Sequence record: SRR2962707_2058
Direction: 5' to 3' (one strand)
DNA: 33,804 nt
This document shows, piece by piece, positions 8,964 to 33,052 of the stretch. Both the position numbers and the translations under genes were made by a program. The notes under the pieces are model-generated. The model made no database searches and was not told the origin of the DNA. It saw nothing but the letters and a program-made list of their open reading frames with translations. Every line of letters starts with the position of its first letter. The stretch's first letter is position 1.

Positions 8964-9077
8964 TTTACGGTATATCTATGCCCAAATTATATATTTTACA
9001 GTTATATCGCACCACGCTAGAAATTGCCCTCTGGGATCAATAATAGTAAAATTGTCTTATTTGGGAGAGTGAAATCT

Positions 9078-11749: not shown

Positions 11750-11771
11750 TTTTCTTTAAAGGGACATTACA

Positions 11772-12689: not shown

Positions 12690-12698
12690 GGATATATC

Positions 12699-15124: not shown

Positions 15125-15732
15125 GCCGCAAAATAGTCGCGATTCTACGCGGAATTACACCAAGCGAAGCGATCTCAATCGCCAAAGTGTTGATAGACGC
15201 TGGCATCGAAATTATCGAAGTGCCGCTCAATTCGCCAGAGCCGCTAAAATCCATTGAAGCGATGGCCAATGAATTTGGTGACAAAGCGCTCATTGGCGCA
15301 GGCACCGTGCTCAGTGTTGCCGATGTCGAAAATGTGAAAAATGCGGGCGGCAAAATTATTGTCTCGCCGGACATGAACCCTGAGGTGATTAAGGTGACGA
15401 AAGCGGCAGGTCTGCTTTCCTACCCAGGCGTTATGACACCATCAGAATGTTTTGCGGCGCTGCGCGCTGGCGCCGATGCGCTTAAACTATTTCCAGGTTC
15501 ACTCATTGGCCCCGCCGGTCTTAAAGCCATGCGCGCTGTCATACCTGCTGAAATTGATGTGCTGGCCGTTGGCGGCGCAGCACCTGATAATTTTGCGGAC
15601 TGGTTTGCCGCTGGTGCATCAGGCTTTGGCATGGGCACAGCGATTTATCGCCCCGGCGATGCGCCTGAAATTGTAAGCGCCCGCGCCAAGGAAATCGTTG
15701 CCAGCTACGACAAATATGTCGGTCGCAAATAA
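15121..15732 (+). CDS. dgoA: 2-dehydro-3-deoxy-6-phosphogalactonate aldolase
   Basis: AILRGITP, IEVPLNSP, GAGTVL, LKLFP, AVGG; ATGA overlap with dgoK. Confidence 0.93.
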   Translation: MSRKIVAILRGITPSEAISIAKVLIDAGIEIIEVPLNSPEPLKSIEAMANEFGDKALIGAGTVLSVADVENVKNAGGKIIVSPDMNPEVIKVTKAAGLLSYPGVMTPSECFAALRAGADALKLFPGSLIGPAGLKAMRAVIPAEIDVLAVGGAAPDNFADWFAAGASGFGMGTAIYRPGDAPEIVSARAKEIVASYDKYVGRK

Positions 15733-16938: not shown

Positions 16939-17751
16939 TTAGGCTTTTAAATCGCGCTGATAAATCCAGTCATGGTCTGGATCGTTTTTAAAGCGCCATT
17001 TGCGCAAGGGACCAGCCATCACATTGAGATAGTAAAGATCATAGCCGTAGGGTGCGCCCACCGGATGATGACCTTTTGGCACCAGCGTTACATCGCCGTC
17101 TTTGAAGGCAATAGCTTCATCCAGAGAACCGTCCTCGGTATAAATCCGATGGAGGCCAAAACCAGATTTCGGGTTAAGCCGATGATAATAGCTTTCTTCC
17201 AAATAGGTCATGTTCGGATAATCATCTTCATCATGGCGATGGCTTGGATAGGAAGACCAATTACCCTGCGGCGTGAAAACCTCTGTTACCAAAAGACTGT
17301 CGGCGACATCGCGGCCTTCCATCGCAATATTATTGATGTGGCGTGTATTTGCCCCAGTACCACGCGTTGAACTTTCAATGCCGACAGGGCCAAGACGGGC
17401 CGCTTTATAATTGCCTTTGCCAGGCGCTGCACAGACTGCCAGCACACACTTGGTTGTCGCCTTTGCAGACCAGTCAGAACCATTGGGCACATAAACCGCG
17501 TGTGGCGGTGTTCCTTCAAACACATCCATGCGGTCGCCCATCTCGCCGAAGTTCTCGCCGCTGGCTACAATTTCCGCTTTGCCTTCAACAAGAACCAAAA
17601 TGACTTCATTGTCTCCGGTTGCTTCACTTGCACTTTCGCCTGCTGCTAAGTGGTACAGCCCAAATCCAACATATTTCCATCCAGCACTTGCTGGCGTGAC
17701 ATCGTGAACTTTCCCGCTGTTGGCGCGCGGCTTAAGGTGCAATTTGCTCAT
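16939..17751 (-). CDS. iolB: 5-deoxy-glucuronate isomerase
   Basis: TPASAGWKYVGF, EVFTPQGNWSSYPSHRHD, LEESYY, VPKGHHP, YYLNVMAGP. Confidence 0.95.
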   Translation of the reverse strand: MSKLHLKPRANSGKVHDVTPASAGWKYVGFGLYHLAAGESASEATGDNEVILVLVEGKAEIVASGENFGEMGDRMDVFEGTPPHAVYVPNGSDWSAKATTKCVLAVCAAPGKGNYKAARLGPVGIESSTRGTGANTRHINNIAMEGRDVADSLLVTEVFTPQGNWSSYPSHRHDEDDYPNMTYLEESYYHRLNPKSGFGLHRIYTEDGSLDEAIAFKDGDVTLVPKGHHPVGAPYGYDLYYLNVMAGPLRKWRFKNDPDHDWIYQRDLKA

Positions 17752-17822
17752 GGCTATGTATTTTCCTACCCATTATCTTAGTCTTTTTGTTGGTTTAATC
17801 ATTGAGCATGCGTGCATGCTTT

Positions 17823-17836
17823 GCAACATAATTTCC
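17823..17836. promoter_or_regulatory. Candidate IolR operator
   Basis: GCAA-CATAAT-TTCC, one mismatch from the rhizobial IolR motif GGAA-N6-TTCC, in the iolB/iolE divergent spacer. Confidence 0.35.
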
Positions 17837-17965
17837 AACTTTTGCCGCTTCATCAACGCGCTTCTTACTTGTTTGCTGATTGCGATAATGCCATAGAATC
17901 GCGCCAAATGGGATGGTGCCATAAGCCAAACGCGCTATGGCAGAAAAACAAGCGAAAGTCATAAG

Positions 17966-18862
17966 ATGAAAGCAAAATTGGGAATGTCGCCAATCGCATG
18001 GTGGAACGATGATCTGGCCGAACTGAGCGATGATGTTTCGCTGGAGGAATGTTTGCGCCAAACCAGTGTCGCAGGTTTTACCGGCATGGAAACAGGCCGC
18101 CGATTCCCGATGGATATGAACGAGCTTGGACCGATCTTAAATAAATATGGCATATCAGTTTGCGGTGGCTGGTTCTCTGGTCTGTTGCTTGACGGCGATA
18201 TTGAAGTTGAAAAAGACCGCATCGCCGCACAGATGGAATTCTTTAAAGCCGCCAATGCACCTTGCATCGTCTATGGAGAAACGGCGCGCTCAATCCAAGG
18301 TGAAAAGTCAAAACCATTGGCGACGAAGCCAAAGCTTTCTGATGACGAGATGAAAGCCTATGGGCGCAAGATGACTACATTTGCAGAATGGTGCGCTGAT
18401 CAAGGCATGCCGCTTAGCTATCATCACCATATGGCTGCGGCCATTGAAACCGAACAAGAGCTTGATAGCTTCATGGCAAATTCAGGTGAGGCATTGCCGC
18501 TGCTTTATGATGCAGGCCACATGGCGTTTGCCGGCGGCGATGTGTTGCGTGTGCTTGATAATCACCATGCCCGCATTAGTCATGTTCATACTAAAGATGT
18601 GCGAATGAATGTGATCGATGGTCTTGATCGCTCAAAAGAGAGCTTTTTGGATGCGGTCGTCAAAGGTGCATTCACCGTGCCGGGCGATGGTTCGCTCGAT
18701 TTTGAAGCCATCGTTAAACGCCTTGCATCTTATGATTATGAGGGCTGGTTTGTTGTCGAAGCTGAGCAAGATCCGGTCGCGAACCCACCGCTTGAGATGG
18801 CAAAAGTTGGCCATAAGGAATTGCTTCGTGTTATGGCAGCCGCAGGCTACGAAGTTATCTAA
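17966..18862 (+). CDS. iolE: myo-inosose-2 dehydratase
   Basis: PIAWWNDD, YHHHM, DAGH, HVHTKDVR, FTVPGDG, GWFVVEAEQDP. Confidence 0.95.
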   Translation: MKAKLGMSPIAWWNDDLAELSDDVSLEECLRQTSVAGFTGMETGRRFPMDMNELGPILNKYGISVCGGWFSGLLLDGDIEVEKDRIAAQMEFFKAANAPCIVYGETARSIQGEKSKPLATKPKLSDDEMKAYGRKMTTFAEWCADQGMPLSYHHHMAAAIETEQELDSFMANSGEALPLLYDAGHMAFAGGDVLRVLDNHHARISHVHTKDVRMNVIDGLDRSKESFLDAVVKGAFTVPGDGSLDFEAIVKRLASYDYEGWFVVEAEQDPVANPPLEMAKVGHKELLRVMAAAGYEVI

Positions 18863-18889
18863 ACCGACAGACACATTTAAGGACGCGCT

Positions 18890-19105
18890 ATGTTACTAGA
18901 TCCAAACGATCCATTCTTCGCCCCACTTTGGCGGCGTTTTGCCATCTTGGTCGTTTGCTTTGGATGGGCGATTTTAGAATTGTTTATCGGTACGCCGACT
19001 TGGGCGGCGATCTCAGCAGGTATAGGCCTATGGGCTGGTTGGCAGCTGTTCTTTAAGCGCGATGCAGATAAGGTCGAGGAAGTGGCTAAAGATGAACAAG
19101 ATTGA
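18890..19105 (+). CDS. Small two-TM membrane protein (DUF3329-annotated alphaproteobacterial type)
   Basis: DPNDPFFAPLWRR followed by two hydrophobic helices; AAGGA RBS; in the same orientation between iolE and the SDR. Confidence 0.75.
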   Translation: MLLDPNDPFFAPLWRRFAILVVCFGWAILELFIGTPTWAAISAGIGLWAGWQLFFKRDADKVEEVAKDEQD

Positions 19106-19910
19106 TGGAAAGGTCGCCGTTGTTACGGGCGGCACGCAAGGTCTGGGTGCAGCGATTGCTCAGCAAATGGCTAAAGCTGGCGCTGCTGGCATTATTACCT
19201 GTGGACGTAACGCTGAAAAAGGCGAGGCGGTTGCAGCCGCGATTATCGCTGAAACCGGATGCCGTGTTCATTTCATCAAGGCTGACTTGGCCAGTGTTGA
19301 AGATTGCCGCGCTGTCGTAAAAGCGGCGGACGATCAATTTGGCCGCGTGGACATTTTGGTCAATGCTGCAGGTCTGACCGATCGCGGTGATATATTGACG
19401 ACCGACGAAGCGCTGTTCGACAATATGTTTGCCGTCAACGTCAAAGCGCCATTCTTTTTGATGCAGGAAGCAATCAAGCGCATGATCCGTGATGAGATTG
19501 AAGGCGCTATTGTTAATATTGGTTCCGTATCAGCCATGGCTGGACAACCTTTCATATCACCCTATTGCGCATCCAAAGGCGCGCTTGCAACGCTAACGAA
19601 AAACACAGCCTTTGCCGTGATGCGCAATCGCATCCGTGTCAATCAGCTCAATATTGGGTGGATGGCGTCTGATGGCGAAGATCGCATTCAACGCGAATAT
19701 CATGGTGCCGAAGAAAGTTGGCTCGAAAAAGCTGCTGCTGAAATGCCGTTCGGACGTTTGCTTGCGCCTAGGGAAGTTGCCAAAGCCGTGCTGTTCTTAA
19801 GCTCTACGGATTCCGGCATGATGACCGGATCGGTTGTCAACTTTGATCAATCTATCTGGGGTGCGTATGAAGCCGCATCGCCTACGCCATCTGAAAAAAT
19901 GAAGCTCTAG
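19092..19910 (+). CDS. Short-chain dehydrogenase/reductase (classical SDR)
   Basis: TGGTQGLG, VNAAG, catalytic YCASK; ATG at 19092 after GAGGA. Confidence 0.92.
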   Translation: MNKIDGKVAVVTGGTQGLGAAIAQQMAKAGAAGIITCGRNAEKGEAVAAAIIAETGCRVHFIKADLASVEDCRAVVKAADDQFGRVDILVNAAGLTDRGDILTTDEALFDNMFAVNVKAPFFLMQEAIKRMIRDEIEGAIVNIGSVSAMAGQPFISPYCASKGALATLTKNTAFAVMRNRIRVNQLNIGWMASDGEDRIQREYHGAEESWLEKAAAEMPFGRLLAPREVAKAVLFLSSTDSGMMTGSVVNFDQSIWGAYEAASPTPSEKMKL

Positions 19911-20797
19911 GATCTATAGACGAACAGGTTTTTGTCTTTTTCAGCGATGGTTTGCAGGAACTTAGCGACTTCGCGGATTCGGCGGCTATTGTTCATGCTT
20001 TCGTGCCAAACGGTCCAATAGCTTCTGCTAAGGTTATGGGCGGGTAAAATGCGCTCAAACTGCGCGCTATCACGCACCATAAAATCATGCAAAATGCCGA
20101 TGCCGCCACCAGACCGCACAACTTCAAATTGGCCGAGCGCACTGGAAACCTCGATGTTGGAATGCCAATCGCGCAAAAACTGCGCGGCATAATCCAGCGC
20201 TGGCGTAAAGATGAGATCATCAACATAGCCAACAAGGCGGTGGTTTCTCAAATCATCGAGGCTTTCAGGCCTGCCGTACTTTTCCAAATAATCTGGCGAG
20301 GCAAAAAGACTCAGCGAGTAATCGGTCAATTTGCGCACCCGCAAGCGGCCTTTTTCTGGCCGGTCCACAGTAATCGCAATATCGGCTTCGCGCTGCGATA
20401 GGGAAAATACCCGAGGCACGGGCACAAGCTGTATCGTGAGATCGGGAAATTGCTCATTAAGCAGGCGCAGACGCGGCGCAAGAAAAGCAACACCAAACCC
20501 ATCGGGCGCGCCAATTCGCACTGTGCCGCTGACATTGCTTTCGTGGCCTTTGAGTGTTGATGAAACCTGCAGCGCTTCAGCCTCAATATTGAGCGCATGT
20601 TCCATCAGCGAAACGCCTTGCGGTGTTAACTCACAGCCAGCCGTCGAACGGTTAAACAAGATCATATCCAGAGAGCTTTCAAGCGCAGATAAATGCCGAT
20701 TGAGCTTGGCTTGAGACACGCCTAGTTTTTGCGCGGCGCTGAGCATTTGCCCATCGCGCGCAACCGCGAGAAAAAACCGCAAATCGTTCCAATCCAT
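19907..20797 (-). CDS. LysR family transcriptional regulator, divergent from mmsA
   Basis: MDWNDLRFFLAVAR..AAQKLGVSQ HTH, LFNRS, GTVRIGAPDGFG, READIAI. Confidence 0.94.
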   Translation of the reverse strand: MDWNDLRFFLAVARDGQMLSAAQKLGVSQAKLNRHLSALESSLDMILFNRSTAGCELTPQGVSLMEHALNIEAEALQVSSTLKGHESNVSGTVRIGAPDGFGVAFLAPRLRLLNEQFPDLTIQLVPVPRVFSLSQREADIAITVDRPEKGRLRVRKLTDYSLSLFASPDYLEKYGRPESLDDLRNHRLVGYVDDLIFTPALDYAAQFLRDWHSNIEVSSALGQFEVVRSGGGIGILHDFMVRDSAQFERILPAHNLSRSYWTVWHESMNNSRRIREVAKFLQTIAEKDKNLFVYRS

Positions 20798-20893
20798 CTT
20801 ATATCCAAAAGTGAAGATCTGTTATCAGCCTTTGTCTATATTTTTGAGCAATAAAAGTCGATAGGTTAAGCCACAATCAAATAGGAGAGAAAT

Positions 20894-22396
20894 ATGACTG
20901 AAATAGCCCATTTCATAAACGGCGCTGCCGTTGCCAGCAAATCTGGCCGCAATCAAGCCGTTTTCAATCCTGCAACGGGTGAAGCTGTAAACACAGTTGC
21001 GCTCGCAAGTGTTGAAGAAGTTGATGCCGCTGTTGCAGCCGCAAAAGCTGCATGGCCAGCATGGTCTAAAACACCGGCTTTGCGCCGCGCCCGTATCCTA
21101 GACAAATTCAAAAACATCCTTTGGGAACGCATGGAAGATCTTGCTCGCGCAATTTCCTCCGAGCATGGCAAAACCCATGATGATGCCGTTGGTGAAGTCA
21201 CACGCGGCCTAGAGGTTGTTGAATTTGCCGTTGGCGCACCAACCTTCCTAAAAGGCGAGTTCTCAGAAAATGTAGGCACTGGCGTTGATAGCAATATGAT
21301 CCGTCAAAGCCTTGGCGTTTGCGCAGGCATTACACCGTTCAACTTCCCAGCAATGGTGCCGATGTGGATGTTCCCTGTTGCCCTAGCAACTGGCAATACA
21401 TTCATTCTTAAACCGTCTGAGCGCGACCCTTCACCATCCCTTCTTATCGCGGCATGGCTCAAAGAAGCTGGCCTTCCTGATGGCGTGTTTAACGTCGTCC
21501 AAGGTGATAAAGTTGCGGTTGATGCGTTGCTAAACAATCCTGATGTGAAAGCCGTTAGCTTTGTGGGTTCAACCCCAATTGCGCGCTATATTCACCAGAC
21601 GGGTACAGCCAATGGCAAACGCGTTCAGGCACTTGGCGGTGCTAAAAACCATATGATCATTATGCCAGACGCTGATTTGGATATGGCCGCAAATGCTCTT
21701 ATGGGCGCAGGCTACGGTTCTGCTGGTGAGCGCTGCATGGCGATTTCAGTCGCAGTTCCTGTAACCGACGCTGTTGCTGATGCCTTGATTGCAAAATTGG
21801 TGCCGCAGATTGAGGCGCTTAAAATTGGCCCATCAACCGATGCGACATCAGACATGGGCCCAATTGTGACCGATGCTGCGCGTGATCGCATTCACGGTTA
21901 TATTGATGCGGGCGAAGCTGCCGGTGCCAAAGTTGTGGTCGATGGCCGGAAATTTAAGCAGACAAAGCAGGGCTATGAAAATGGCTTTTATACCGGCGGT
22001 ACCTTGCTCGATAACGTGACCGAAGACATGACTTGTTACCGCGAAGAAATTTTTGGTCCTGTTGTTTCTGTTGTGCGCAAAAATTCTTATCAGGAAGCTG
22101 TGGATCTGATCCATGGCCATGAATATGCGAACGGCACTGCGATCTTTACCCGTGATGGCGACACGGCCCGTAACTTCTCACAGGAAATCGAAGTCGGCAT
22201 GGTTGGCATCAATGTGCCAATTCCTGTGCCAATGGCATTCCATAGTTTTGGTGGCTGGAAATCTTCGATTTTCGGCGATCATCATATGCACGGTATGGAA
22301 GGTGTTCGTTTCTATACACGCATTAAAACAACGACGACACGCTGGCCAACGGGTCAACGCACAGACCCAGAATTTACAATGCCGACACTTGGCTAA
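20894..22396 (+). CDS. mmsA: CoA-acylating methylmalonate/malonate-semialdehyde dehydrogenase (MmsA/IolA)
   Basis: ITPFNFPAMVPMW, KPSERDP, GGAKNH, AGERCMA, GINVPIPVP, FGGWK; AGGAG RBS. Confidence 0.95.
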   Translation: MTEIAHFINGAAVASKSGRNQAVFNPATGEAVNTVALASVEEVDAAVAAAKAAWPAWSKTPALRRARILDKFKNILWERMEDLARAISSEHGKTHDDAVGEVTRGLEVVEFAVGAPTFLKGEFSENVGTGVDSNMIRQSLGVCAGITPFNFPAMVPMWMFPVALATGNTFILKPSERDPSPSLLIAAWLKEAGLPDGVFNVVQGDKVAVDALLNNPDVKAVSFVGSTPIARYIHQTGTANGKRVQALGGAKNHMIIMPDADLDMAANALMGAGYGSAGERCMAISVAVPVTDAVADALIAKLVPQIEALKIGPSTDATSDMGPIVTDAARDRIHGYIDAGEAAGAKVVVDGRKFKQTKQGYENGFYTGGTLLDNVTEDMTCYREEIFGPVVSVVRKNSYQEAVDLIHGHEYANGTAIFTRDGDTARNFSQEIEVGMVGINVPIPVPMAFHSFGGWKSSIFGDHHMHGMEGVRFYTRIKTTTTRWPTGQRTDPEFTMPTLG

Positions 22397-22430: not shown

Positions 22431-22460
22431 AAAGGCCGCCCCGTGCGGCCTTTTGTTTGT
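22431..22460 (+). terminator. Rho-independent terminator after mmsA
   Basis: AAAGGCCGC-cccgt-GCGGCCTTT followed by TGTTTGT. Confidence 0.88.
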
Positions 22461-22543
22461 GAAGAAAAACACAATTATCAATTCACAATTGTGGCAAGTA
22501 TGATGTAAGTTCCCTCTCATATTCTTGGGAGGGAATGAACGAA

Positions 22544-23878
22544 ATGCGGCACCAGACTAAAATTTTGTCAGCCATCGCTTTGGCTTTAAGCGTCAGTGTG
22601 GCTTGGGCAGGTAATTTACCAAAACCAGCCAGTGATGATGATTTTGTCGCGGTCGATATGCGCGAAGTTGAACTCGGCCAATTATTGTTCTGGGATCCCA
22701 TTCTATCAGGCAACAAAAATATCTCCTGCGGCACCTGCCACCACCCCAAATTTGGTACCGCCGATGGCGTGTCGCTTTCAATTGGTGAAGGCGGCAAGGG
22801 CCTTGGTCCGGATCGTACGCCACTTGCCAGCGACATGCCCGAGCAGCGTATTCCGCGCAACGCGCCAGCCCTGTTTAATCTGGGCGCGAAAGAATTTGTC
22901 GCGATGTTTCATGATGGCCGAATAGAAGCCGACCCGACGAAGAAGTCGGGCATCCGTTCGCCAATGGATGATGACATGACAGTTGGTTTTTCCGGCGTTT
23001 TGTCCGCGCAGGCCATGTTCCCTGTCTTGTCTAGTGACGAGATGGCAGGTCAATTTAGTGAGAACGATGTTTCTAAAGCGGTACGCCAAGGCCTCATCAC
23101 TGGCGAAGGTGGTGCGTGGGATATTATTGCAAAACGCGTTTCTGCAATTGAACAGTATCGCGATATGTTTGCTAGTTTCGATGCTGATATTGCTAGCGGA
23201 AAGCCTATAGATTTCACGGACATTTCAAATGCTATGGCAGCGTTCATTGTTTTTGAATGGCGTGCAGATAACAGTCCATTTGATAATCATCTGCGCGGAA
23301 AAGCGCAGATCGTTGGGCCTGCGGCAACCGGCATGGATTTGTTCTATGGCAAGGCTAATTGCGGCACCTGTCACACCGGCACTTTCCAAACAGATCACCA
23401 ATTTCACGCGATGGGCGTGCCGCAATTAGGACCGGGAAAATCAGCGAGCTTTGAATATAACAGCCAAGATACCGGCCGCGAACGCGTTACCGGAAATCCC
23501 GACGACATGTATGCATTTCGCACGCCTTCGCTTAGAAATGTGAAGCTCACCGCGCCCTATGGGCACGATGGCGCTTACCGAGATTTGCGCAGCTTTGTAG
23601 AGGCGCATGCAAATCCTGCAACCGCGATTGCCAATTATGACAGAAGCGAAGCATTGTTCTCTAACTTCACACCGCCAAAAGATGATTGGGCGGTCATGGA
23701 TGATAGTGCTGAAAATGCCGCAATCGCTGCTGCTGTTAAGACAGCATCTGTCGATTTAAGCGATCAAGATATTGATGCGTTAATGGCATTTTTAGACCAG
23801 CTGACAGATCGCCAAGGCGCGGATGGGCGTTTGGGTATTCCTAAAAGCGTTCCAAGCGGCTTGCCAGTTGATCGCTGA
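22544..23878 (+). CDS. Exported diheme cytochrome c peroxidase / MauG-superfamily protein
   Basis: Signal peptide (..ALSVSVAWA), LGQLLFWDPILS, two CGTCH heme motifs, RNAPALFN, FRTPSLRNV..TAPYGHDG, C-terminal VPSGLPVDR. ATG at 22544 fits the GGGAGGG RBS better than 22535. Confidence 0.9.
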   Translation: MRHQTKILSAIALALSVSVAWAGNLPKPASDDDFVAVDMREVELGQLLFWDPILSGNKNISCGTCHHPKFGTADGVSLSIGEGGKGLGPDRTPLASDMPEQRIPRNAPALFNLGAKEFVAMFHDGRIEADPTKKSGIRSPMDDDMTVGFSGVLSAQAMFPVLSSDEMAGQFSENDVSKAVRQGLITGEGGAWDIIAKRVSAIEQYRDMFASFDADIASGKPIDFTDISNAMAAFIVFEWRADNSPFDNHLRGKAQIVGPAATGMDLFYGKANCGTCHTGTFQTDHQFHAMGVPQLGPGKSASFEYNSQDTGRERVTGNPDDMYAFRTPSLRNVKLTAPYGHDGAYRDLRSFVEAHANPATAIANYDRSEALFSNFTPPKDDWAVMDDSAENAAIAAAVKTASVDLSDQDIDALMAFLDQLTDRQGADGRLGIPKSVPSGLPVDR

Positions 23879-25462
23879 TTAATCGCGAGTTTCGTGGACA
23901 GTAAATGCGTTGGTCGTTTTCACGCGCTCAACGCTTAGCTGCTGGTTGGCCAGAACGGTTGACCAGTCAGACGTCGCACCATCTGGCCATATAATCCGCA
24001 GCTCAGCTTCTTGTGCCGTGCCTAAGCCGAAATGAACCGGCGCAATTTCGCCGCTGGCATGGCCGCCGCCAACATTAATTTCATGGGTCTGAACTTTGCC
24101 GGTTGATGCACCGCGCAATTCTACCCACGCGCCGATTGCATCGCGGTTTATGCCCTCTTGGCTAATTTTTAGCGAAACAAAATTGCCAACCGATTTGCTT
24201 ATATTTTCATAGACTTCAAAGGGCGCACGGCGGTTCATCACGGCAATGTCAAGTTTACCGTCGCGGTTGAAATCCAAAACAGCCGCGCCGCGTGATCGCG
24301 CCATATTGGCGATGCCGGCTTCAAGGCCAATTTCGTAGAAGGTGCCGTCGGGCTTTTGTTTCAGCAGATTGTTCGGGTCTTTTGTCGCCATGCCGGGCAT
24401 CTGATCAACATTGCCTTTTGCAATAAAGAGGTCGGGCAAGCCGTCATTATCGACATCGCCAAATTCCGCATGCCAGCCCGTTGAAGGGCGGCCATCATCG
24501 CCCGTATAAGGCTTATGCGCATACGCACCGATAGAGAATGGCGCATTTTCCATGCGCGCACCGCCTGCATAAAATTGCATGAGTTGGTCGCCCATGGAGG
24601 TAAGGACCACATCAGGCTTTTCGTCATTATTTAGATCTTGGCTGGCAATGCCCATGCCCCAAACTGAAATTGGCTGCCAACCATCTTCGCGGGTCAATGA
24701 ACGCATTTCATCAAGCCGCCACATCTGTTCTTCGCCGTGATCGACATAATAATGGCGGTCGTTGGAAATGCGAAGATCGCGCCGGCCCGTGCGCATCCAA
24801 TCAGAAAACAACATTGAAAGAGCGCAATAGCCTGGTTCAAGATTTATCGCTGCGCTGTAGGCTTTGCCTTCGGGGCGATGAAGTTGATTAATGTCACACG
24901 CACGAAACGGCCCATCTGGGTTGCTGCGGTCAACATAATTGCCTGCGGCAAGTGTTGGGAAATCTTTGCCCTCTTCCCATGTGGCAGAAAAGGATGTTGT
25001 CCATTTATCGCCGCCATCAAAATGCCATTCCACATTGGCTTCTTCAAATTTGCAATTGGGCAGACCGCGCAACAATTTGTTTTCGCCAACGCGCATTACG
25101 AACAGATCTGTTATGCCATCGCTATCGATATCGAGCGGATAAGCGCCCGTGACATGCTCAAATTCTGCACCGCTATTGGGCACTGACTTAAATTGAATTG
25201 CCGCGCCAGCTTCGCCGGTGGTGTTCACGATAAGGCGCGATGGATCAGAGCCGCCCGCCAACAACGCATCGGGAAAATGGTCGCCATTGCAATCAAATGT
25301 TGCCATACCGCCGCCGACAAAATGTTCCCAGCCGCCACTGTAGTTGTGAACAAAGTCAAAGCCTTCAGCACGCGGCGCGAATACTGTTTCGGCTGCCTGA
25401 CTTGGATAAGCGATAAGCGCAAAGCCAGCTGCGTATAATAATGTTTGATTTAGTTTTCTCAT
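23879..25462 (-). CDS. Exported CRTAC1-like protein: FG-GAP beta-propeller plus ASPIC/UnbV domain
   Basis: Signal peptide (..IAYPSQA). Repeated DxDxDG-type loops (DCNGDHFPD, DIDSDGITD, DLNNDEKPD, DVDNDGLPD, DFNRDGKLD). C-terminal NRDAIGA..GGGHASG..VHFGLG..WPDG. Confidence 0.88.
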   Translation of the reverse strand: MRKLNQTLLYAAGFALIAYPSQAAETVFAPRAEGFDFVHNYSGGWEHFVGGGMATFDCNGDHFPDALLAGGSDPSRLIVNTTGEAGAAIQFKSVPNSGAEFEHVTGAYPLDIDSDGITDLFVMRVGENKLLRGLPNCKFEEANVEWHFDGGDKWTTSFSATWEEGKDFPTLAAGNYVDRSNPDGPFRACDINQLHRPEGKAYSAAINLEPGYCALSMLFSDWMRTGRRDLRISNDRHYYVDHGEEQMWRLDEMRSLTREDGWQPISVWGMGIASQDLNNDEKPDVVLTSMGDQLMQFYAGGARMENAPFSIGAYAHKPYTGDDGRPSTGWHAEFGDVDNDGLPDLFIAKGNVDQMPGMATKDPNNLLKQKPDGTFYEIGLEAGIANMARSRGAAVLDFNRDGKLDIAVMNRRAPFEVYENISKSVGNFVSLKISQEGINRDAIGAWVELRGASTGKVQTHEINVGGGHASGEIAPVHFGLGTAQEAELRIIWPDGATSDWSTVLANQQLSVERVKTTNAFTVHETRD

Positions 25463-26778
25463 TTTACCGCACTTATGTTGATTGGCGCATATGGGTTTTG
25501 ATTAGACTGCACATTGTTATGGCCGAGCAACTCATCGCTTAATGCAGATAGTGCGAGCGCTGCAGCCCCTTGTGCCCACAGGAGATTGCCCCATCGATGA
25601 ATTTCGATTGTCGGGCGCTTGCCCATACGGTCTAACGTGAGACTTTCGGTTTCCGCCAAAACTTCATCGCCATAAAGAAACTCATATTCCATCCGTTCGC
25701 CCGACAAGATGACGAGACTAGGGTCAAAAATATTGATAATGTTGGAAAGGCCGGATGCCAAATAACGGCCCGCACGTCTAAATATCGAAAGGGCAGGCGC
25801 GTTGCCATTTTTTGCCTCTTCAAACAATTGCTGCAACACAGCCGCAGGGTCGGTTTTGCCTTTAAGTTCCAAATTAAGCGCGGTGGATGCCTCACGCACC
25901 AACGCATAATCTGCAACATAGGCTTCAACGCATCCGCGCTGGCCGCAGCGACATAGTGCGCCATCAAGCTGCACTTTTGTATGCCCAAACTCCATGCCAA
26001 GCCCCATAGCCCCGCGATAGAGTTGGTGGTTGATCACCATGCCCATACCAACACCATATTCGATGGTGACAACGGCAAAGTCGGAGATGTTGCGGCCTTT
26101 GCCAAACCACAATTCGGCAAGCGTCACCAGATTGGTATCATTATCTATGTGGACAGGAATGCCGAATTTCTGGGCTGCCATATCGCGAATTGGAACACGG
26201 CGGTTAGCAATCAACGGTGACCAAACGGCGAGGCCCGCAGAATTATCAATCAAGCCAGGCATACCAAGGCCAAGCGCAGAAATTTGATCAAGACGCAGAT
26301 CACACTTTGTCAGGGCTTTTCCGAGTAGTTCATATGCTTCATCGAGCAGATCTTCTGTGCTGCGCTTTGGTCGATTATGAACCATCTCAGCACTGGCAAC
26401 GACACGGCCTGCAAAATCAACAATAACGGCTGTGTGCTTGTTATCACTTAGTTTTAGTCCAGCCACATAGAATGCGTTTTGGCATACGCCCAATGAAACT
26501 GGTGGTCGCCCGCGTAGCGGTTCTCCATCGCGGGCAGGCGAGGTGACTTCGTTTATGTAGCCTGCTTCTATCAGATCAGATGAAATTGACGTGACACTGC
26601 CGGGGCTGATGTTGAGGCTGTTGGCAATATCAATGCGTGCACATAAGCCTGCACCGCGAATATAATCAAATACTTGGCGCCGAAGTGGACGCACGCCCTC
26701 AGTGTTTGGAGGTATAAGCGGGCCGCAGCCCTCAATGAGGCCATCAGCATCTATATGTAAGGAAATATCATCCGGCAT
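25459..26778 (-). CDS. ROK family transcriptional repressor (XylR-like)
   Basis: N-terminal wHTH (RIDIANSLNISPGSVT, GRPP), IDNDTN..AE, GVGMG, EFGH and the Zn motif CRCGQRGCVEAY; divergent from xylF. Confidence 0.92.
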   Translation of the reverse strand: MPDDISLHIDADGLIEGCGPLIPPNTEGVRPLRRQVFDYIRGAGLCARIDIANSLNISPGSVTSISSDLIEAGYINEVTSPARDGEPLRGRPPVSLGVCQNAFYVAGLKLSDNKHTAVIVDFAGRVVASAEMVHNRPKRSTEDLLDEAYELLGKALTKCDLRLDQISALGLGMPGLIDNSAGLAVWSPLIANRRVPIRDMAAQKFGIPVHIDNDTNLVTLAELWFGKGRNISDFAVVTIEYGVGMGMVINHQLYRGAMGLGMEFGHTKVQLDGALCRCGQRGCVEAYVADYALVREASTALNLELKGKTDPAAVLQQLFEEAKNGNAPALSIFRRAGRYLASGLSNIINIFDPSLVILSGERMEYEFLYGDEVLAETESLTLDRMGKRPTIEIHRWGNLLWAQGAAALALSALSDELLGHNNVQSNQNPYAPINISAVK

Positions 26779-26884: not shown

Positions 26885-26927
26885 CGTCAATTTATTTTTT
26901 GACAACTGAATAAAATATTGCAATGAT
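26885..26927. promoter_or_regulatory. Candidate ROK operator overlapping divergent sigma70 -35 elements
   Basis: TTTATT-N12-AATAAA (26891-26914) encloses a perfect TTGACA (26899-26904) with AATGAT 17 nt downstream. A minus-strand TTGACG lies at 26885-26890. Confidence 0.5.
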
Positions 26928-26994
26928 TTGCGGCATGTTGATACATTTATCGGCGTAGCCAGGCATGGCACAATTAATCTCGGGAGGATTTTTC

Positions 26995-28029
26995 ATGCGC
27001 AAAACTCTAATTCTTGCTGCTTTTGCAGCGCTAGCTATGAACTCGACAGCAATGGCTGCGGGCAAAACAGTCGCTGTTTCTTGGAAGGTATTCCAAGAAG
27101 AGCGTTGGAAACGCGACGAAGCTGTTATTAAGAAAATCGTTGAAGATGCAGGCGATACCTACATCTCTGCCGATGCTCAGGGTTCAGCTGCTAAACAGCT
27201 TACAGATATTGAATCTTTGATTTCTCAGGGCGCTGACGTTCTTATGATCGTGCCTTTCGACTCAGAAGCAATTTTGCCAGCTGTTGAAAAAGCAACCGCT
27301 GAAGGCATTCCAATGATCGCTTATGATGTTCAGATCGAACATCCAGATAGCCTTTACATCACATTCGATAACGTAGGCGTTGGCCGTCTGATCGCTAAAG
27401 AAGTGCTTAAAGCAAAACCTGAAGGCAACTTGGCAATCATTAAAGGTGACCCAGGCGATCCGAATGCAACATTTTTGCTAAATGGCATGATGGAAGTTGT
27501 TCAGCCAAGCATCGACTCTGGCGCTGTGAAAATCGTCGGCGAAGCATTCTCTGATGGTTGGAAGCCTGAAAATGCGCAGAAGAACATGGAACAGATCCTA
27601 ACTGCCAATGAAAACAAAGTTGACCTCGTTTTCTCTGAAAATGACGGTATGGCTGGTGGTGTTGTGGCTGCTCTTTCTGCACAGGGCCTTGCTGGTTCAG
27701 TGCCAGTTGGCGGTCAGGACGGCGACCTAGCTGCGATCAACCGTGTTGCTCTTGGCACGCAGACAACTTCAGTTTGGAAAGACTCTCGTGCATTGGGTAA
27801 GGTGGCTGCTGAAGCTGCTTTGATGCTCGCAGACGGCAAATCAATGACTGATGTTCCTGGCGTTACTAAGTTCTCAGACGGTAAACGCGGCGTAGAAGTA
27901 AACGCTATTCTTCTTGATCCGCTACCAATCACAGTTGACAACATCGACGTTGTTATCGACGCTGGCTGGATCGACAAAGATACAGCTTGTAAAGGCGTTG
28001 AAGCAGGCAAAGTTGCAGCTTGTAACTAA
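26995..28029 (+). CDS. xylF: D-xylose ABC transporter substrate-binding protein
   Basis: Signal peptide, FQEERWKRDE, YITFDN, KGDPGDPNA, GW, ENDGMAGG, GQDGD, VWKD; ATG at 26995 after GGGAGG. Confidence 0.9.
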   Translation: MRKTLILAAFAALAMNSTAMAAGKTVAVSWKVFQEERWKRDEAVIKKIVEDAGDTYISADAQGSAAKQLTDIESLISQGADVLMIVPFDSEAILPAVEKATAEGIPMIAYDVQIEHPDSLYITFDNVGVGRLIAKEVLKAKPEGNLAIIKGDPGDPNATFLLNGMMEVVQPSIDSGAVKIVGEAFSDGWKPENAQKNMEQILTANENKVDLVFSENDGMAGGVVAALSAQGLAGSVPVGGQDGDLAAINRVALGTQTTSVWKDSRALGKVAAEAALMLADGKSMTDVPGVTKFSDGKRGVEVNAILLDPLPITVDNIDVVIDAGWIDKDTACKGVEAGKVAACN

Positions 28030-28083: not shown

Positions 28084-28181
28084 TATTTCCAAAAGTTTTC
28101 CAAATTATATATGCGAGATCCTGACCGCAGAGCGGTTGCAGTCGATTTCCCATCATTATTAAATATTTAGGAGTGTTGGCT

Positions 28182-29501
28182 ATGGCCGATGGCGGAACTA
28201 CGCAAGACCCCAATGCACCAAGGCAAGACAGCGCATTTGTGCGGTTCTTGCGCGCGACTGAGATCGACACCCGCATGCTGGGTATGATTGCAGCACTGAT
28301 CGCAATTTGGGTAGGTTTTCATTATTATGGTCTATTTGCCAACGGTTTTGCGGCGTTTCTAACACCGCGAAATTTATGGAACCTATCAGTTCAAACATCT
28401 TCAATTGCCGTGATGGCGACAGGCATGATGCTAATTATCGTGACGCGCCACATCGACCTTTCTGTTGGTTCAATGCTTGGCCTCGTCGCCATGCTTATGG
28501 GTGTGACGCAGGTTTGGATTTTGCCGGAATATCTTGGTCTCGATAACCCGCTTACATGGGTTATCACCGTCGGTGTTGGTGTAATTGCAGGAACAATCAT
28601 TGGCGCTTTCCAAGGTTTTTTAATTGCCTATCTGTCCATACCTGCCTTCATCGTCACATTGGGCGGTCTTTTGATTTGGCGCGGGTCTGCCTATTTGGTG
28701 GCGCGCGGAGAAACAATTGCGCCGGTTGATACGACCTTTGCTCTTATCGGCGGCGGCCCTTTCGGTACGGTCGGTGCAACCGGCACTTGGATCGTTGGTA
28801 TTCTTGCTTGTTTAGGTATTATCGCTTTGCTTTTGGCTGGACGTCGCCAAAGGGTTCGATTTGAATTTCCATTGCGTCCAATGTGGGCAGAATATCTAAT
28901 CGGCGGTATTGGCTGTGGTTTGGTTATTGCCACTGTACTCGTGATGAATGCCTATCCTTGGCCTAAAGGCATTGTGCGCCAAGTCGCGCAGGAGCGCGGT
29001 GTAACACCTGAAGACATCGGCTTCGTATCGCACGGTCTGGCAATTCCAGTTTTGATCGCAATTGCAGTTGGCCTCGTGATGACATTCATCACAACACGCA
29101 CGCGCTTTGGCCGCTACGTGTTTGCCATTGGTGGCAACCCAGAAGCGGCAGAATTGGCCGGTATTAACACCAAAAAAATGACATTGATGATTTTCGCCCT
29201 GATGGGTGCCTTGGTTGGTATTTCAGCGACGATTGCAAGCGCCCGTCTAAAATCAGCAACGATCGCGCTTGGTCAATTTGATGAGCTTTACGTGATTGCA
29301 GCAGCGGTTATCGGCGGCACTTCTTTTGCTGGCGGTATCGGCACGATTTACGGCGCCATGCTCGGCGCGCTGGTTATGCAGTCCCTGCAATCGGGCATGG
29401 TGCTCGTTGGTTTTGACAGCGCAATCCAGCAAATGGTCGTCGGCGGCGTTCTCGTTGTCGCTGTATGGCTCGACACAATGTATCGCAAGAATTCGGTTTA
29501 G
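28182..29501 (+). CDS. xylH: Xylose ABC transporter permease
   Basis: RHIDLSVGS, IPAFIVTLGG, TRFGRYVFAIGGNPEAAELAGI, ELYVIAAAVIGG; ATG at 28182 after AGGAG. Confidence 0.92.
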   Translation: MADGGTTQDPNAPRQDSAFVRFLRATEIDTRMLGMIAALIAIWVGFHYYGLFANGFAAFLTPRNLWNLSVQTSSIAVMATGMMLIIVTRHIDLSVGSMLGLVAMLMGVTQVWILPEYLGLDNPLTWVITVGVGVIAGTIIGAFQGFLIAYLSIPAFIVTLGGLLIWRGSAYLVARGETIAPVDTTFALIGGGPFGTVGATGTWIVGILACLGIIALLLAGRRQRVRFEFPLRPMWAEYLIGGIGCGLVIATVLVMNAYPWPKGIVRQVAQERGVTPEDIGFVSHGLAIPVLIAIAVGLVMTFITTRTRFGRYVFAIGGNPEAAELAGINTKKMTLMIFALMGALVGISATIASARLKSATIALGQFDELYVIAAAVIGGTSFAGGIGTIYGAMLGALVMQSLQSGMVLVGFDSAIQQMVVGGVLVVAVWLDTMYRKNSV

Positions 29502-29510
29502 GGGTTGGTG

Positions 29511-30311
29511 ATGACAAATTCACAGACAAATACGATGGATCAACAGCCACTTGTCGAAATGCGGGATGTTTCAATCGCTTTCGGCGGCATTAAAGCGGTC
29601 GATCATGCAAGCCTTTCGCTTTATCCAGGCGAAGTTGTTGGTTTGCTTGGGCACAATGGCGCAGGCAAATCAACGCTGATTAAAATCCTGTCAGGCGCCT
29701 ATGCGCGTGATGGCGGCAAAATCTACGTTGGCGGCGAAGAGGCGCAAATCGCAAATCCGCGTGACGCAAAAGCCTATGGTATCGAGACGATTTACCAAAC
29801 GCTTGCGCTTGCTGATAATGTGGATGCGGCGGCTAACCTTTTCCTTGGTCGCGAATTGCTGACCCGCTGGGGTACACTTGATGATGCGGCAATGGAATCT
29901 GAAACACGCAAGGTGATGGGCCGTTTGAACCCAAACTTTAGACGTTTTAAAGATCCGGTGAAATCGCTATCAGGTGGCCAACGCCAATCCGTGGCGATTG
30001 CCCGTGCGATCCACTTTAATGCGCGCATCTTGATTATGGACGAACCAACGGCGGCGCTTGGACCACAAGAAACCGCACAGGTTGGTGAACTTATTAAGCA
30101 GCTTAAAAAAGATGGCATCGGCATATTCCTGATCAGCCACGACATTGAAGACGTGTTTGATTTGGCGGACCGCGTTGCTGTGATGAAAAACGGCCAGATG
30201 GTTGGCTCAGCAAAAGTCGGTGATGTGACCAAGGACGAAGTTCTGGGCATGATCATCTTGGGCAAATGTCCGCCCGGCGCTACGCCCGGCCCAGGCGCGA
30301 TCGAGGAATAA
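29511..30311 (+). CDS. xylG: Sugar ABC transporter ATP-binding protein (single NBD)
   Basis: Walker A GHNGAGKS, signature LSGGQ, Walker [13 protein letters not shown]. Exact start is uncertain (29505, 29508, 29511 or 29535). Confidence 0.9.
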
Positions 30312-30314: not shown

Positions 30315-31754
30315 ATGTATCTCGGCCTTGATCTTGGCACTTCTGGACTGAAGGGTCTGCTCATTGATAGCAAACAGAATATCGTCGCTGAAGCTTCAGC
30401 TGCGATTTCTGTTTCACGTCCTCATGACGGCTGGTCAGAGCAAGACCCAGCCGACTGGATCGCTGCAACTAAGAGCGTCTTGGCTGATCTAGCAAAGGCC
30501 ACTGATCTGTCCTTGCTGCAAGCCATCGGTGTCAGTGGTCATATGCACGGCGCAACTTGCATCGACAAAGCAGGTGAAATTATTCGCCCTGCCATTTTGT
30601 GGAATGATACGCGCAGTCACGTAGAAGCCGCAGCGATGGATGCTGATCCTGAATGGCGCTCTGTTACGGGCAATATTGTTTTCCCAGGCTTTACCGCACC
30701 CAAAATTAATTGGATGCGCAAGAATGAGCCTATGCTTTTTGAGCGTATTGATAAGGTGCTCTTGCCGAAGGACTATCTGCGCTATTGGCTTATCGGCGAT
30801 TGCGTCGCTGAAATGTCTGATGCTGCAGGCACCGCGTGGCTCGACACCGGAAAACGCGATTGGTCTGACAGCCTGCTTGCCAAAACGGGACTTAGCCGTG
30901 GGCAGATGCCACGCCTAGTTGAGGGCGGCGAAGTTTCGGGCACAGTGCGTTCCGCACTTGCGCAGGAATTTGGCTTTTCAGATAAAGTAGTGGTTGCTGG
31001 CGGCGCTGGTGACAATGCCGCCGCAGCGATTGGCGTTGGTGTTGTCAAAGAAGGTGATGCGTTTGCATCCTTTGGCACGTCTGGTGTTTTGTTTGCCGCC
31101 TGTGATGGCTTCAAGCCTGATCCTGAAACGGCAGTGCACACATTTTGCCACGCGGTTCCAGATACTTGGCATCAAATGGGCGTTATCCTATCTGCAACGG
31201 ATTCCCTTAATTGGTACGCAAAATTTGTTGGCAAAAGCGCCGCGGATCTAACGACTGGTCTTGGCGACCTTGTAGCGCCAAGCAAGACTTTGTTTTTGCC
31301 CTATTTGGGCGGCGAACGCACACCGCATAATGACGCCAATGTGCGCGGCGCCTTCCTTGGCCTTGAACACATCACAGATCAAGCCGCCGGAACCCGTGCA
31401 GTCCTAGAAGGTGTTGTGCATGCCTTCCGCGATAGTTTTGATGCCCTAACGTCAACCGGCACCAAAATGGAACACATTATGGCAGTTGGCGGTGGATCAA
31501 AGTCTGACTACTGGCTTAAAGCATTGGCGACATCGCTCAATATGCCGATTGATGTGCCGGTCTCCGGTGACTTTGGCGGCGCATTGGGCGCAGCCCGTCT
31601 CGCAATGATGGCTAAAACAGGCGCTGGCGCTGAAATCGCGACCCGCCCCCCTGTGGCCAAAACAGTAGAACCTGTAACCTCAATGATTGAAGCATTCAGC
31701 GATGCGCATAGCCGTTATCGTGAAGCATACAAAGCGATAAGGAGCCTCGCGTGA
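30315..31754 (+). CDS. xylB: Xylulokinase
   Basis: [47 protein letters not shown]. Confidence 0.96.
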
Positions 31755-33052
31755 CTGACTTTTTCAAAGGAATTGAAGCCGTAAAATATGAAGGTCCAGA
31801 CAGCGATAGCGAACTTTGCTACCGCCATTACGATCCAAATGAAGTGATCATGGGCAAGCGTATGGAAGATCATCTGCGCTTTGCCGTGGCATACTGGCAT
31901 TCATTTGCTTGGCCAGGCGGCGACCCTTTTGGTGGCCAAACATTTGATCGGCCTTGGTTTGGCGAGACAATTGAGCTGGCTAAGTTGAAAGCGGACGTTG
32001 CTTTCGACATGTATGAAATTTTGGGCCAGCCATATTACTGTTTCCATGATGCCGATATGCGTCCCGAAGGCGCAAATTTTGCGGAAAGCCAAGCTAATCT
32101 CGAAACCATCGTCGATTACCTTGGCGAGAAAATGGAGAACTCAAAGACTCGTCTTCTTTGGGGAACAGCAAACCTATTTTCTAATCGCCGCTTTATGTCT
32201 GGCGCATCGACTAATCCTGACCCAGATGTCTTTGCCTATTGTGCGGCGACCGTAAAAGGCTGCATGGACGCGACCCTTAAATTGGGCGGTGAAAACTATG
32301 TGCTTTGGGGTGGCCGCGAAGGCTATGAAACATTGCTCAACACCGACCTAAAACAGGAAGACGAGCACATGGGCCGCTTCCTTAACATGGTTGTTGATTA
32401 CAAACACAAAATTGGTTTCAAAGGTCCGATCCTTATCGAGCCAAAGCCGCAAGAACCATCAAAGCATCAATATGATTATGATGTTGCCACCGTCTACGGC
32501 TTCCTCAAACGTCATGGCCTTGAGAACGAAGTGCGCGTGAACCTTGAGCAGGGACATGCAATTCTTGCCGGCCACTCTTTTGAGCATGAGCTTGCAATGG
32601 CTGGTGCGCTCGGCATTTTCGGTTCAATCGATATGAACCGCAATGATTATCAATCTGGCTGGGATACCGATCAGTTCCCAAACAATGTGCCTGAAGTGGC
32701 TTTGGCCTATTATGAAATTCTGCGTGCGGGTGGTTTTACAACCGGTGGCACAAACTTTGATGCGAAAATTCGCCGTCAGTCGCTTGATCCGATGGATTTG
32801 ATTGCTTCACACGTTGGCGGCATGGATATCTGTGCACGCGGCTTTAAAGCGGCTGCTAAAATGTTTGAAGACGGCAAATTGGAAGCAGAGCGCAAAGCAC
32901 GTTATGCTGGCTGGGAAACCGGCGAAGCCAAAGCAATGCTCAACAGCAATCTTGGCGATATTACTGCCCGTGTGCTTGCTGAAGATATCAATCCACAGCC
33001 ACGCTCTGGTAAGCAGGAAATTTTGGAAAATTTGGTCAATCGCTACGTCTGA
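31751..33052 (+). CDS. xylA: Xylose isomerase (class II)
   Basis: [43 protein letters not shown] overlap with the xylB stop. Confidence 0.97.

Follow-up and report, generated by a model that had tools for sequence, protein, structure and literature searches.

An exported di-haem protein and a CRTAC1-like propeller protein beside the xylose-uptake genes of a marine bacterium: a candidate peroxide-using pair

The xylose genes xylFHG and xylAB and their regulator XylR are considered fully understood, but in 168 of 301 genomes sampled evenly from a marine order an additional gene for an exported propeller protein is present at this locus, which raises the question of what such a protein does there. 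We addressed this question in a stretch of 33,804 nucleotides from a marine bacterium, sequence record SRR2962707_2058, which is called the window below and whose coordinates count from its first letter. Adjoining the xylose-uptake genes of the window are two neighbouring genes, one for a CRTAC1-like propeller protein and one for a di-haem protein of the CCP/MauG superfamily. We think it rather probable that the two proteins make up one periplasmic peroxide-using unit, an accessory of a xylose-uptake locus that is controlled by a ROK (XylR-type) regulator. This reading draws on the anatomy of the locus, co-conservation, partner swapping and residue patterns, all of which were observed, and on a complex that was predicted; from these we infer the use of peroxide and the link to xylose.

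An initial annotation of the window had described the pair as an exported di-haem protein of the MauG/bacterial cytochrome c peroxidase (bCcP) type and an ASPIC/UnbV propeller, and the Pfam families and the signal-peptide-like N-termini of both proteins (MNEMRHQTKILSAIALALSVSVAWA and MRKLNQTLLYAAGFALIAYPSQA, read by eye) bear this out. The position given there for the start of the di-haem gene, 22544, is not a start codon, the nearby ATG codons being at 22535 and 22547, but the junctions are as described. The two genes stand tail to tail with a gap of zero, the TGA stop of the di-haem gene (23876-23878) abutting the complement (TTA) of the propeller stop (23879-23881), and the start of the propeller gene overlaps the stop of the ROK gene in a shared ATGA (25459-25462; ...GTA AAA TGA on the minus strand). 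A consensus scan gave no terminator-like site at the convergent junction, so that transcription of either gene would continue in antisense direction into its neighbour. The di-haem protein belongs to the CCP_MauG superfamily by its Pfam score (CCP_MauG, PF03150, 119.6 bits against a gathering threshold of 25.6), by its two CXXCH haem motifs (C65-H69 and C276-H280) and by its bCcP fold. The propeller protein belongs to the CRTAC1/ASPIC-UnbV family, with Pfam scores of 71.7 bits against 26.9 for FG-GAP_3 and 59.8 against 23.4 for UnbV_ASPIC, and no NCBIfam model matches it. Its structural model, with a predicted local distance difference test (pLDDT) score of 91.1, is closest to murine CRTAC1 (9ETN; Z 37.8, root-mean-square deviation (rmsd) 2.6 over 443 residues, 18% identity), the match spans the C-terminal domain too, and CRTAC1 was the sole match when the PDB was searched with the propeller sequence. 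The next fold matches of the propeller are the EPTP domain of LGI1 (Z 29.1) and aldos-2-ulose dehydratase (AUDH, 4A7K; Z 28.3, rmsd 3.5 over 355 residues), and generic seven-bladed propellers score Z 24-26. We know of no enzymatic role for CRTAC1.

If the two proteins work together their genes should be found together, and a survey of gene neighbourhoods, proposed in the initial annotation as a check, showed that the pair is co-conserved with each other and with ROK-xylFHG-xylBA. One genome per species was scanned with the propeller and the best 80 of 169 loci were kept, which come from Ahrensia at about 70% identity and from many genera of Rhodobacterales at 50-62%; they were searched with the window proteins by tblastn. 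Loci from this and the other scans are numbered with the prefix L. The di-haem gene follows the propeller gene directly and convergently in 69 of the 80 loci; it is missing from the locus in nine, on the same strand in one and 5 kb away in one. ROK lies directly upstream of the propeller gene in 73 loci and xylF is present in 74. The convergent stop codons overlap by 4 nucleotides in 33 of the 60 loci for which both gene ends were called by script. The gene beyond the di-haem gene changes from genus to genus and thus the di-haem gene marks the exact end of the conserved block. At L006 and L010 the pair is kept although ROK and xyl genes are absent, and all five genomes tested that have no adjacent di-haem gene have a copy of it elsewhere that is 56-61% identical. 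At one locus (L021:11508-12725) a cytochrome P450 gene is convergent to the propeller gene in place of the di-haem gene, the orthologue of which lies elsewhere in that genome.

The sample of 301 genomes was scored for the propeller at E 1e-60 or better and for the di-haem orthologue at E 1e-130 or better. The propeller was found in 168 genomes and the di-haem orthologue in 156; both are present in 149, the propeller only in 19, the di-haem orthologue only in 7 and neither in 126, which gives a Fisher p of 4e-54, a statistic that ignores shared ancestry. The seven genomes with the di-haem orthologue only all have the weakest E-values, 1e-131 to 1e-142. The two genes lie within 2.5 kb of each other in 130 of the 140 genomes that have both and for which both positions were listed. 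Seven genomes of a class-wide sample of 401 have a propeller orthologue, and all three that have a di-haem orthologue are among those seven. The arrangement of the propeller and di-haem genes is far from chance. Linkage of the propeller gene to xylose genes is kept in four different gene orders, and rearranged yet linked loci read xylFHG-DHOR-propeller-xylBA (L085), DHOR-propeller-xylFHG (L083) and ROK-propeller facing xylB-xylA-di-haem (L087).

The di-haem protein is not the only partner of the propeller. At L083 and L085, which belong to two divergent genomes, the propeller gene is translationally coupled to an upstream gene for a di-haem protein of the DHOR/DUF1111 family inside the xyl operon. 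When metagenomes were scanned with the L085 propeller, 80 loci were obtained, of which 47 have at least 1.5 kb and 35 at least 5 kb of upstream sequence. DHOR is directly upstream on the same strand in 28 of the 47, and the loci with the longer upstream sequence contain xyl genes in 31 of 35 cases, ROK in 25 and DHOR in 24, the usual order being xylGHF facing ROK-DHOR-propeller. Directly upstream of the propeller gene is a vanadium-chloroperoxidase (VCPO)-like gene (DUF6851 + VCPO_2nd) in five further metagenome loci and a PAP2 gene in two. Five of the genomes in the order sample that have the propeller only contain neither a CCP-type nor a DHOR-type protein, and in four of these five a PAP2/VCPO_2nd gene is directly upstream of the propeller gene, twice inside a xyl operon (L189 and L190). 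A DHOR-type partner was not found in the 10 Rhodobacterales genomes searched, an empty result that shows little. Replacement of the partner by unrelated DHOR or vanadium-haloperoxidase-like proteins argues for peroxide chemistry in general and not for one dedicated maturase. Two open reading frames beside propeller genes (L086:2682-3695 and L024:12058-14160) were rejected as spurious because their translations are rich in Arg, Gly and Ala and have no family matches. In metagenome loci without a DHOR partner a Creatinase_N/M24-like gene of 458-496 codons follows the propeller gene on the same strand (L102:1765-3168, L119:8482-9972, L120:2254-3630, L127:8517-9968 and L134:1485-2867) and may be a further recurring neighbour; reading frames of similar size in L154, L164 and L174 have no family match.

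Complex prediction, another check proposed in the initial annotation, was carried out with the mature chains of the propeller and di-haem proteins. It passes its controls, with scores of 0.83, 0.77 and 0.75 and thus a median of 0.77 against 0.50 for the best of three controls; the mark used for such scores is reached by 51 of 78 solved complexes and by 2 of 108 mismatched pairs. Agreement between the runs extends to at least 93% of the contacts, and the partner pLDDT is 90 or higher. The predicted interface comprises residues 45, 48, 183-186, 237-240, 290-292, 316-326 and 352-361 of the propeller and residues 141-148, 162-166, 174-175, 181-189, 303-309 and 317-320 of the di-haem protein. For the propeller, columns that are at least 90% conserved in the CCP-partnered group were compared for their retention at the interface and elsewhere. 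Retention in DHOR-partnered propellers is 0.66 at interface columns against 0.86 elsewhere (p 0.027), and in VCPO/PAP2-partnered propellers it is 0.57 against 0.83 (p 4e-4); G324/R325, G357/M358 and D353/Q354 are examples of partner-specific columns. On the other side, interface columns that are conserved in 31 di-haem orthologues are retained at 0.30 against 0.78 elsewhere in eight paralogues from genomes without the propeller (p 4e-6), and the loop residues 188-189 are deleted in four of the eight, all four being linked to tripartite ATP-independent periplasmic (TRAP) transporter genes. Judged by these sequence comparisons, the residues of the predicted interface are specific to the type of partner on both proteins. 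F162, L165 and S166 of the di-haem interface sit beside P163 of the distal haem pocket and since interface residues flank this pocket the propeller seems, from residue numbers, to cap the peroxidatic side.

The paralogues just mentioned are 41-50% identical to the di-haem protein. Four of them (L091, L092, L093 and L095; 42-46% identical, around positions 7300-9500) share one gene order without a propeller gene, which at L092 runs TRAP transporter (DctQMP), di-haem, PfkB kinase and DeoC/LacD aldolase, with a fucose-isomerase-like gene also after the di-haem gene, while at L091 DctM and DctP precede the di-haem paralogue and a GFO/IDH/MocA oxidoreductase follows it. The presence of paralogues in such TRAP and sugar-type loci suggests that this branch of di-haem proteins has repeatedly been tied to sugar importers.

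What the di-haem protein could do was judged from its fold and key residues. Its AlphaFold model (pLDDT 86.6) is about equally close to the canonical peroxidases (Z 29.5), MbnH (Z 28.7) and MauG (Z about 28), with weaker matches to BthA (Z 24) and to the gamma subunit of hydrazine synthase (HZS; Z 14). The best fold matches are the canonical bCcPs of Nitrosomonas europaea (1IQC; Z 29.5) and Pseudomonas aeruginosa (1EB7/2VHD) and MacA (4AAN), with rmsd 2.2, 292-298 residues aligned and 32-35% identity, and with two CXXCH motifs and the peroxidatic pocket in common. The match to MauG in its complex with the precursor of methylamine dehydrogenase (pre-MADH; 3L4M) has an rmsd of 2.7-2.8 over about 305 residues; MauG, too, acts with a partner that contains a seven-bladed propeller, and the distal Gln/Pro/Glu pocket is conserved. 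The protein scores below every named NCBIfam family cut-off, all those of MauG type included. Its best match, 260.6 bits against a cut-off of 340, is the MauG-like protein of the His-Xaa-Ser system (TIGR03981), and no radical-SAM family, which an HxsB/HxsC context would call for, no mauA/mauB-like or other mau gene and no ccm gene was found in a family scan of 28 open reading frames of the window. A search of the PDB with the middle fragment of the protein gave only chance matches to designed TIM barrels.

All 39 members of the di-haem family that were compared have the distal peroxidatic pocket Q159/P163/E169/M170 unchanged, and it aligns with AAQAKGPVQASVEM of MacA (Q..P..EM), in a weak local alignment from a profile search; the corresponding pocket of MauG we take to be Q103/P107/E113, a numbering that PDB entry titles support. 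In HMMER alignments His358 falls in the column of the MauG ligand Tyr294, which is also that of position 275 of the P. aeruginosa enzyme, and the top match of the search is the engineered MauG variant Y294H (3ORV). This His is invariant in the same 39 sequences, which include the eight paralogues, and MbnH (6E1C) has Tyr at this column (IDIY). The inter-haem Trp is likewise replaced by His: the motif FWDGR, whose Trp the MacA alignment places in the stretch WDGRA that immediately precedes the pocket, is FHDGR in this protein, and 36 of the 39 sequences have His126. Unlike canonical bCcPs, therefore, the protein has neither the Met sixth ligand nor the inter-haem Trp but it does have the distal Gln...Pro...Glu-Met pocket; moreover PYMH reads PYGH, and the N-terminal domain contains an insertion of about 65 residues (the Pfam match covers 44-257 on a profile of 149 positions) that carries the predicted partner-binding loop 181-189. 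Since the pocket is kept and the Trp and Tyr/Met sites are occupied by His, the protein should still activate H2O2 at the five-coordinate haem, and it would be without the residues through which MauG and cytochrome c peroxidase (CcP) pass charge between the haems. MauG with the Y294H change is reported to reach a compound-I-like state but to be unable to make tryptophan tryptophylquinone (TTQ).

The propeller is of the calcium type and has five Dx[DN]xDG-type motifs (57-62, 111-116, 276-281, 336-341 and 397-402) and four invariant Cys residues (58, 137, 189 and 213). Kept in all lineages, whatever the partner, are R231, N234, D235, Y238, Y239, Q246, M270, D292, S327, T328, W330, H331, K349, N351, H468 and H477, and these conserved polar and aromatic residues look like a binding or active site and not like a mere scaffold. 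Taken together with the partner swaps, this suggests how the pair may work. The propeller would be the constant part, made with the ROK regulator when the locus is induced, and the second part would be any enzyme that activates peroxide. The top face of the propeller (Y238, Y239, D292, S327, T328, W330, H331, K349 and N351) probably binds a metal or a ligand of sugar type, and the di-haem protein would dock its peroxidatic-haem domain onto this face. It would have kept the pocket that activates H2O2 and lost the Trp and the Tyr/Met that carry oxidizing equivalents in MauG or electrons in CcP, and because of this combination the chemistry is likely to take place at the five-coordinate haem and to act on something that the propeller either offers or makes. 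A bound sugar-type small molecule might be oxidized with H2O2, or H2O2 formed at the propeller might be destroyed on the spot, or a side chain of the propeller might be oxidized with H2O2; the last option, which is maturation of the MauG type, is the least favoured of the three.

The initial annotation held that the propeller gene is probably expressed with the xylose regulator, and this can be upheld for that gene but not extended to the di-haem gene. A search by expectation maximization of the ROK/xylF spacers of 70 loci and the window gave an 18-nucleotide palindrome, TTTAnTTkk/mmAAnTAAA, which was then used to scan the 80 loci (1.57 Mb) with a threshold of 12 bits. It is present in 68 of the 70 spacers, a circular count because the model was trained on them, and only six matches lie outside the spacers, four of which are between xylF and the propeller or ROK gene in the rearranged Jannaschia loci L016, L022 and L024. 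The best match in the window overlaps the -35 element of a promoter-like site of xylF (26899-26927), and we regard the palindrome as the putative operator of XylR. The ATGA overlap and the palindrome in the spacer would thus place the propeller gene in the regulator's own transcription unit, under an operator presumably common with xylFHG, and make it a member of the XylR (ROK) regulon. The di-haem gene does not appear to be one. None of the 69 loci has a palindrome of at least 12 bits within 250 nucleotides upstream of this gene, and inspection by eye of 70 of its upstream regions revealed nothing beyond ordinary -35/-10-like elements and, at some loci, the end of the upstream gene; the exception is L087, where the di-haem gene follows xylB-xylA on the same strand. 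In the window the di-haem gene has a promoter-like site of its own, overlapped by a 24-nucleotide imperfect palindrome that differs from the xyl operator motif; inspection by eye showed no obvious conservation of it in the three Ahrensia loci, and it may serve another regulator. A terminator-like hairpin separates the di-haem gene from the preceding mmsA/iolA-like gene. The coordinates of these features are given in Table 1.

Table 1. Genes and putative regulatory sites of the xylose locus in the window
Feature	Coordinates	Strand	Remarks
Terminator-like hairpin AAAGGCCGC/GCGGCCTTT, then T run	22431..22453	+	3' of mmsA/iolA-like gene
Imperfect palindrome CACAATTATCAA/TTCACAATTGTG, 24 nt	22470..22493	+	Overlaps promoter of di-haem gene; not the xyl operator motif
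Sigma-70-like promoter of di-haem gene, TTATCA-18-TATGAT	22475..22504	+	Promoter-like site
Di-haem CCP/MauG-superfamily protein, exported	22535..23878	+	447 aa; Pfam and CXXCH motifs
CRTAC1-like protein, exported: seven-bladed FG-GAP propeller and C-terminal UnbV_ASPIC	23879..25462	-	527 aa
ROK-family regulator (XylR-like), with helix-turn-helix	25459..26778	-	439 aa; Pfam ROK 179 bits
Putative XylR operator, palindrome match	26893..26910	.	Best in the window, 15.2 bits
xylF	26965..28029	+	NCBIfam xylF 372 bits, just under cut-off of 389.6
xylH	28173..29501	+	Part of xylose ABC importer
xylG, half-size	29505..30311	+	Part of xylose ABC importer
xylB	30315..31754	+	NCBIfam XylB 542.6 bits
xylA	31751..33052	+	NCBIfam xylose isomerase 708.8 bits

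Among the xylose genes themselves, xylG codes for only 268 residues and covers only the first half (1-238 of 500) of the profiles of XylG/RbsA type, and this short form is kept in related loci (90-100% coverage); the product of xylH is long, 442 residues, with two matched stretches. The rest of the window contains three further groups of genes. Positions 1-8918 are devoted to purine catabolism, with a urate hydroxylase of Urate_ox_N type (cut by the window end), a cupin, ureidoglycolate lyase, XdhABC-like xanthine dehydrogenase genes and an OHCU decarboxylase fused to a domain of polysaccharide-deacetylase type. Positions 9024-15732 code for an ILVD/EDD-type dehydratase, a GFO/IDH/MocA oxidoreductase, a DHDPS-family protein, an aldehyde dehydrogenase, a 2-keto-3-deoxy-galactonokinase and a KDPG-type aldolase, a run that resembles an oxidative sugar-acid route, and therefore a second, non-phosphorylative pentose or hexose pathway is possible beside the isomerase pathway. 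Inositol-type genes occupy positions 16939-22396, namely KduI/IolB, a GFO oxidoreductase, AP_endonuc_2, a short-chain dehydrogenase/reductase and a LysR regulator, and they end with a CoA-acylating methylmalonate-semialdehyde dehydrogenase, after which comes the hairpin just 5' of the di-haem gene.

A search of the literature on UnbV/ASPIC, CRTAC1, MauG/bCcP networks and xylose/XylR regulation in Rhodobacterales found no description of the pair. A secreted, propeller-fold, kelch-type copper radical oxidase of fungi occurs in tandem with a class II peroxidase. This tandem may work in a similar way to the window pair, the protein families being unrelated, and for the copper-radical alcohol oxidase and its haem peroxidase a 'fine-tuned interplay' is reported in the accessible part of the paper (PMC9770985). 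The nearest published observation, as far as the available text of that report goes, is an unexplained CRTAC1-family neighbour of hydrazine-synthase homologues (PMC12758564): in non-anammox bacteria the gene clusters of homologue clades I-III contain 'CRTAC1 family' FG-GAP genes and genes for ABC substrate-binding proteins, which lie between genes for hydrazine-synthase-like haem proteins. Hydrazine synthase itself is described there as having a CCP-like di-haem subunit whose second haem is bis-His and which works with beta-propeller subunits. It differs from the window pair in that its propeller belongs to another family and in that the part of the report available mentions no sugar genes; furthermore, the fold match of the di-haem protein to HZS-gamma (5C2V_C) has Z 14.2 over only 226 residues, far under the bCcP and MauG matches, and HZS-gamma is absent from its sequence matches at E 0.001 or better. 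The VCBS/FG-GAP supercluster is stated in the accessible text to take in lectins, AUDH and rhamnogalacturonan lyases (PMC8023676). AUDH is a sugar-converting propeller, but its match to our propeller is only 2-4 Z units over generic seven-bladed propellers. The BthA paper, in the portion at hand, gives Tyr-His ligation for MauG and BthA, and the available main text on its superfamily network mentions neither FG-GAP nor xylose.

Several observations weigh against the proposal that the pair is one peroxide-using unit of the xylose locus. No redox cofactor or metal site was identified in the propeller. One of the controls of the complex prediction scored 0.50, and since solved complexes of a propeller with a di-haem protein exist (MauG/pre-MADH and hydrazine synthase) the score of the pair may partly reflect these complexes. 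The phyletic statistics ignore common descent, and it may be that the two genes are just carried along with the xyl block. The propeller genes of L187, L084 and L086 have no peroxide-type neighbour, nor have those of about 12 among the 47 metagenome loci, and the PAP2/VCPO-like partners could be phosphatases and not haloperoxidases. Finally, the di-haem gene is on the opposite strand and appears to have its own promoter and no operator-like palindrome.

Other explanations of the pair have to be considered. The first is maturation of the MauG type, in which the di-haem protein would act once per propeller and with H2O2 install a protein-derived cofactor or cross-link, for example at Y238/Y239, W45 or W330, and the mature propeller would then work alone as an enzyme or sensor. 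We consider this unlikely, though it has some appeal. There is precedent in the superfamily since MauG acts on pre-MADH and MbnH on MbnP, the predicted interface holds the invariant propeller aromatics W45 and Y238, and a convergent, separately promoted gene suits a helper that is needed in small amounts. However, the Tyr ligand and the inter-haem Trp that serve remote oxidation are both His in the window protein, as is the ligand in the MauG variant that cannot make TTQ, and docking is predicted, from residue numbers, at the peroxidatic domain and not at the six-coordinate haem. The NCBIfam scores are also low for such proteins, 90.4 bits against a cut-off of 443.85 for the MauG model (TIGR03791) and 123 against 362.85 for the MbnH model (TIGR04039), so that the protein is placed in neither family. 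Two or three unrelated families replace the partner, each with its own variants of the propeller interface, which is hard to square with one precise maturation reaction. The analogy with MauG and MbnH that was drawn in the initial annotation is thus not supported in its specifics.

Metal handling is less likely still. The pair would oxidize or capture periplasmic Fe2+ or Mn2+ with peroxide, like EfeB/EfeO and the DUF1111-DUF1513 iron systems, and would serve to supply the xylose isomerase pathway, which is metal-dependent, or to protect it. An operon precedent exists, as the available part of the preprint reports DUF1111 together with EfeO-like proteins and the beta-propeller DUF1513 and proposes ferrous iron uptake (Price et al., bioRxiv 10.1101/072470); the DHOR/DUF1111 partner of the propeller in 28 of 47 metagenome loci and the conserved Met, His and Asp on the top face of the propeller would fit this. 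Against it, these loci have no EfeO/imelysin, permease or ferritin genes and the linkage is specifically with genes of xylose transport and breakdown and with a ROK regulator that responds to sugar; a metal-regulator box of Fur/Irr type was not seen either, although no search was aimed at one. The last explanation takes the two proteins for unrelated neighbours, the di-haem protein being a periplasmic peroxidase of general function and the propeller a lectin or adhesin that binds calcium, whose adjacency persists only because the tight convergent junction leaves rearrangement no room. It fits the opposite strands, the separate promoters, the lack of a common operator and the di-haem paralogues in other contexts without a propeller, but it is already disfavoured and very improbable because the di-haem orthologue is retained when unlinked (5 of 5), because of the 133 genomes that lack the propeller 126 likewise lack a di-haem match at E 1e-130 or better, because the di-haem partner is elsewhere replaced by different peroxide-type enzymes whose genes are translationally coupled to that of the propeller, and because the complex prediction passes and its interface residues are lineage-specific on both proteins.

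Returning to the peroxide-using unit, the swaps among three unrelated peroxide-type families with matching changes of the propeller surface amount to a natural experiment, which indicates that the job of the propeller needs activated peroxide and not one particular protein. It is conceivable, albeit not probable, that a CRTAC1-like propeller, combined with any one of its three interchangeable peroxide-activating partners, constitutes a carbohydrate oxidase or peroxygenase of a new type, periplasmic, two-component and driven by H2O2. In that case the propeller would bind a xylose-containing or xylose-related substrate, and compound I of the haem, or hypohalite in the vanadium form, would transform this substrate ahead of import of the product by XylFHG. 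Should this prove true, the ASPIC/UnbV (CRTAC1) family, whose members extend as far as humans, would gain its first biochemical role, and a sugar pathway that is among the best studied would acquire an oxidative step. Whatever the function of the pair proves to be, once worked out it would be the first for the bacterial CRTAC1/ASPIC-UnbV proteins and for a large bis-His branch of the CcP/MauG superfamily, and it would perhaps reveal a peroxide-dependent periplasmic sugar chemistry in abundant marine heterotrophs.

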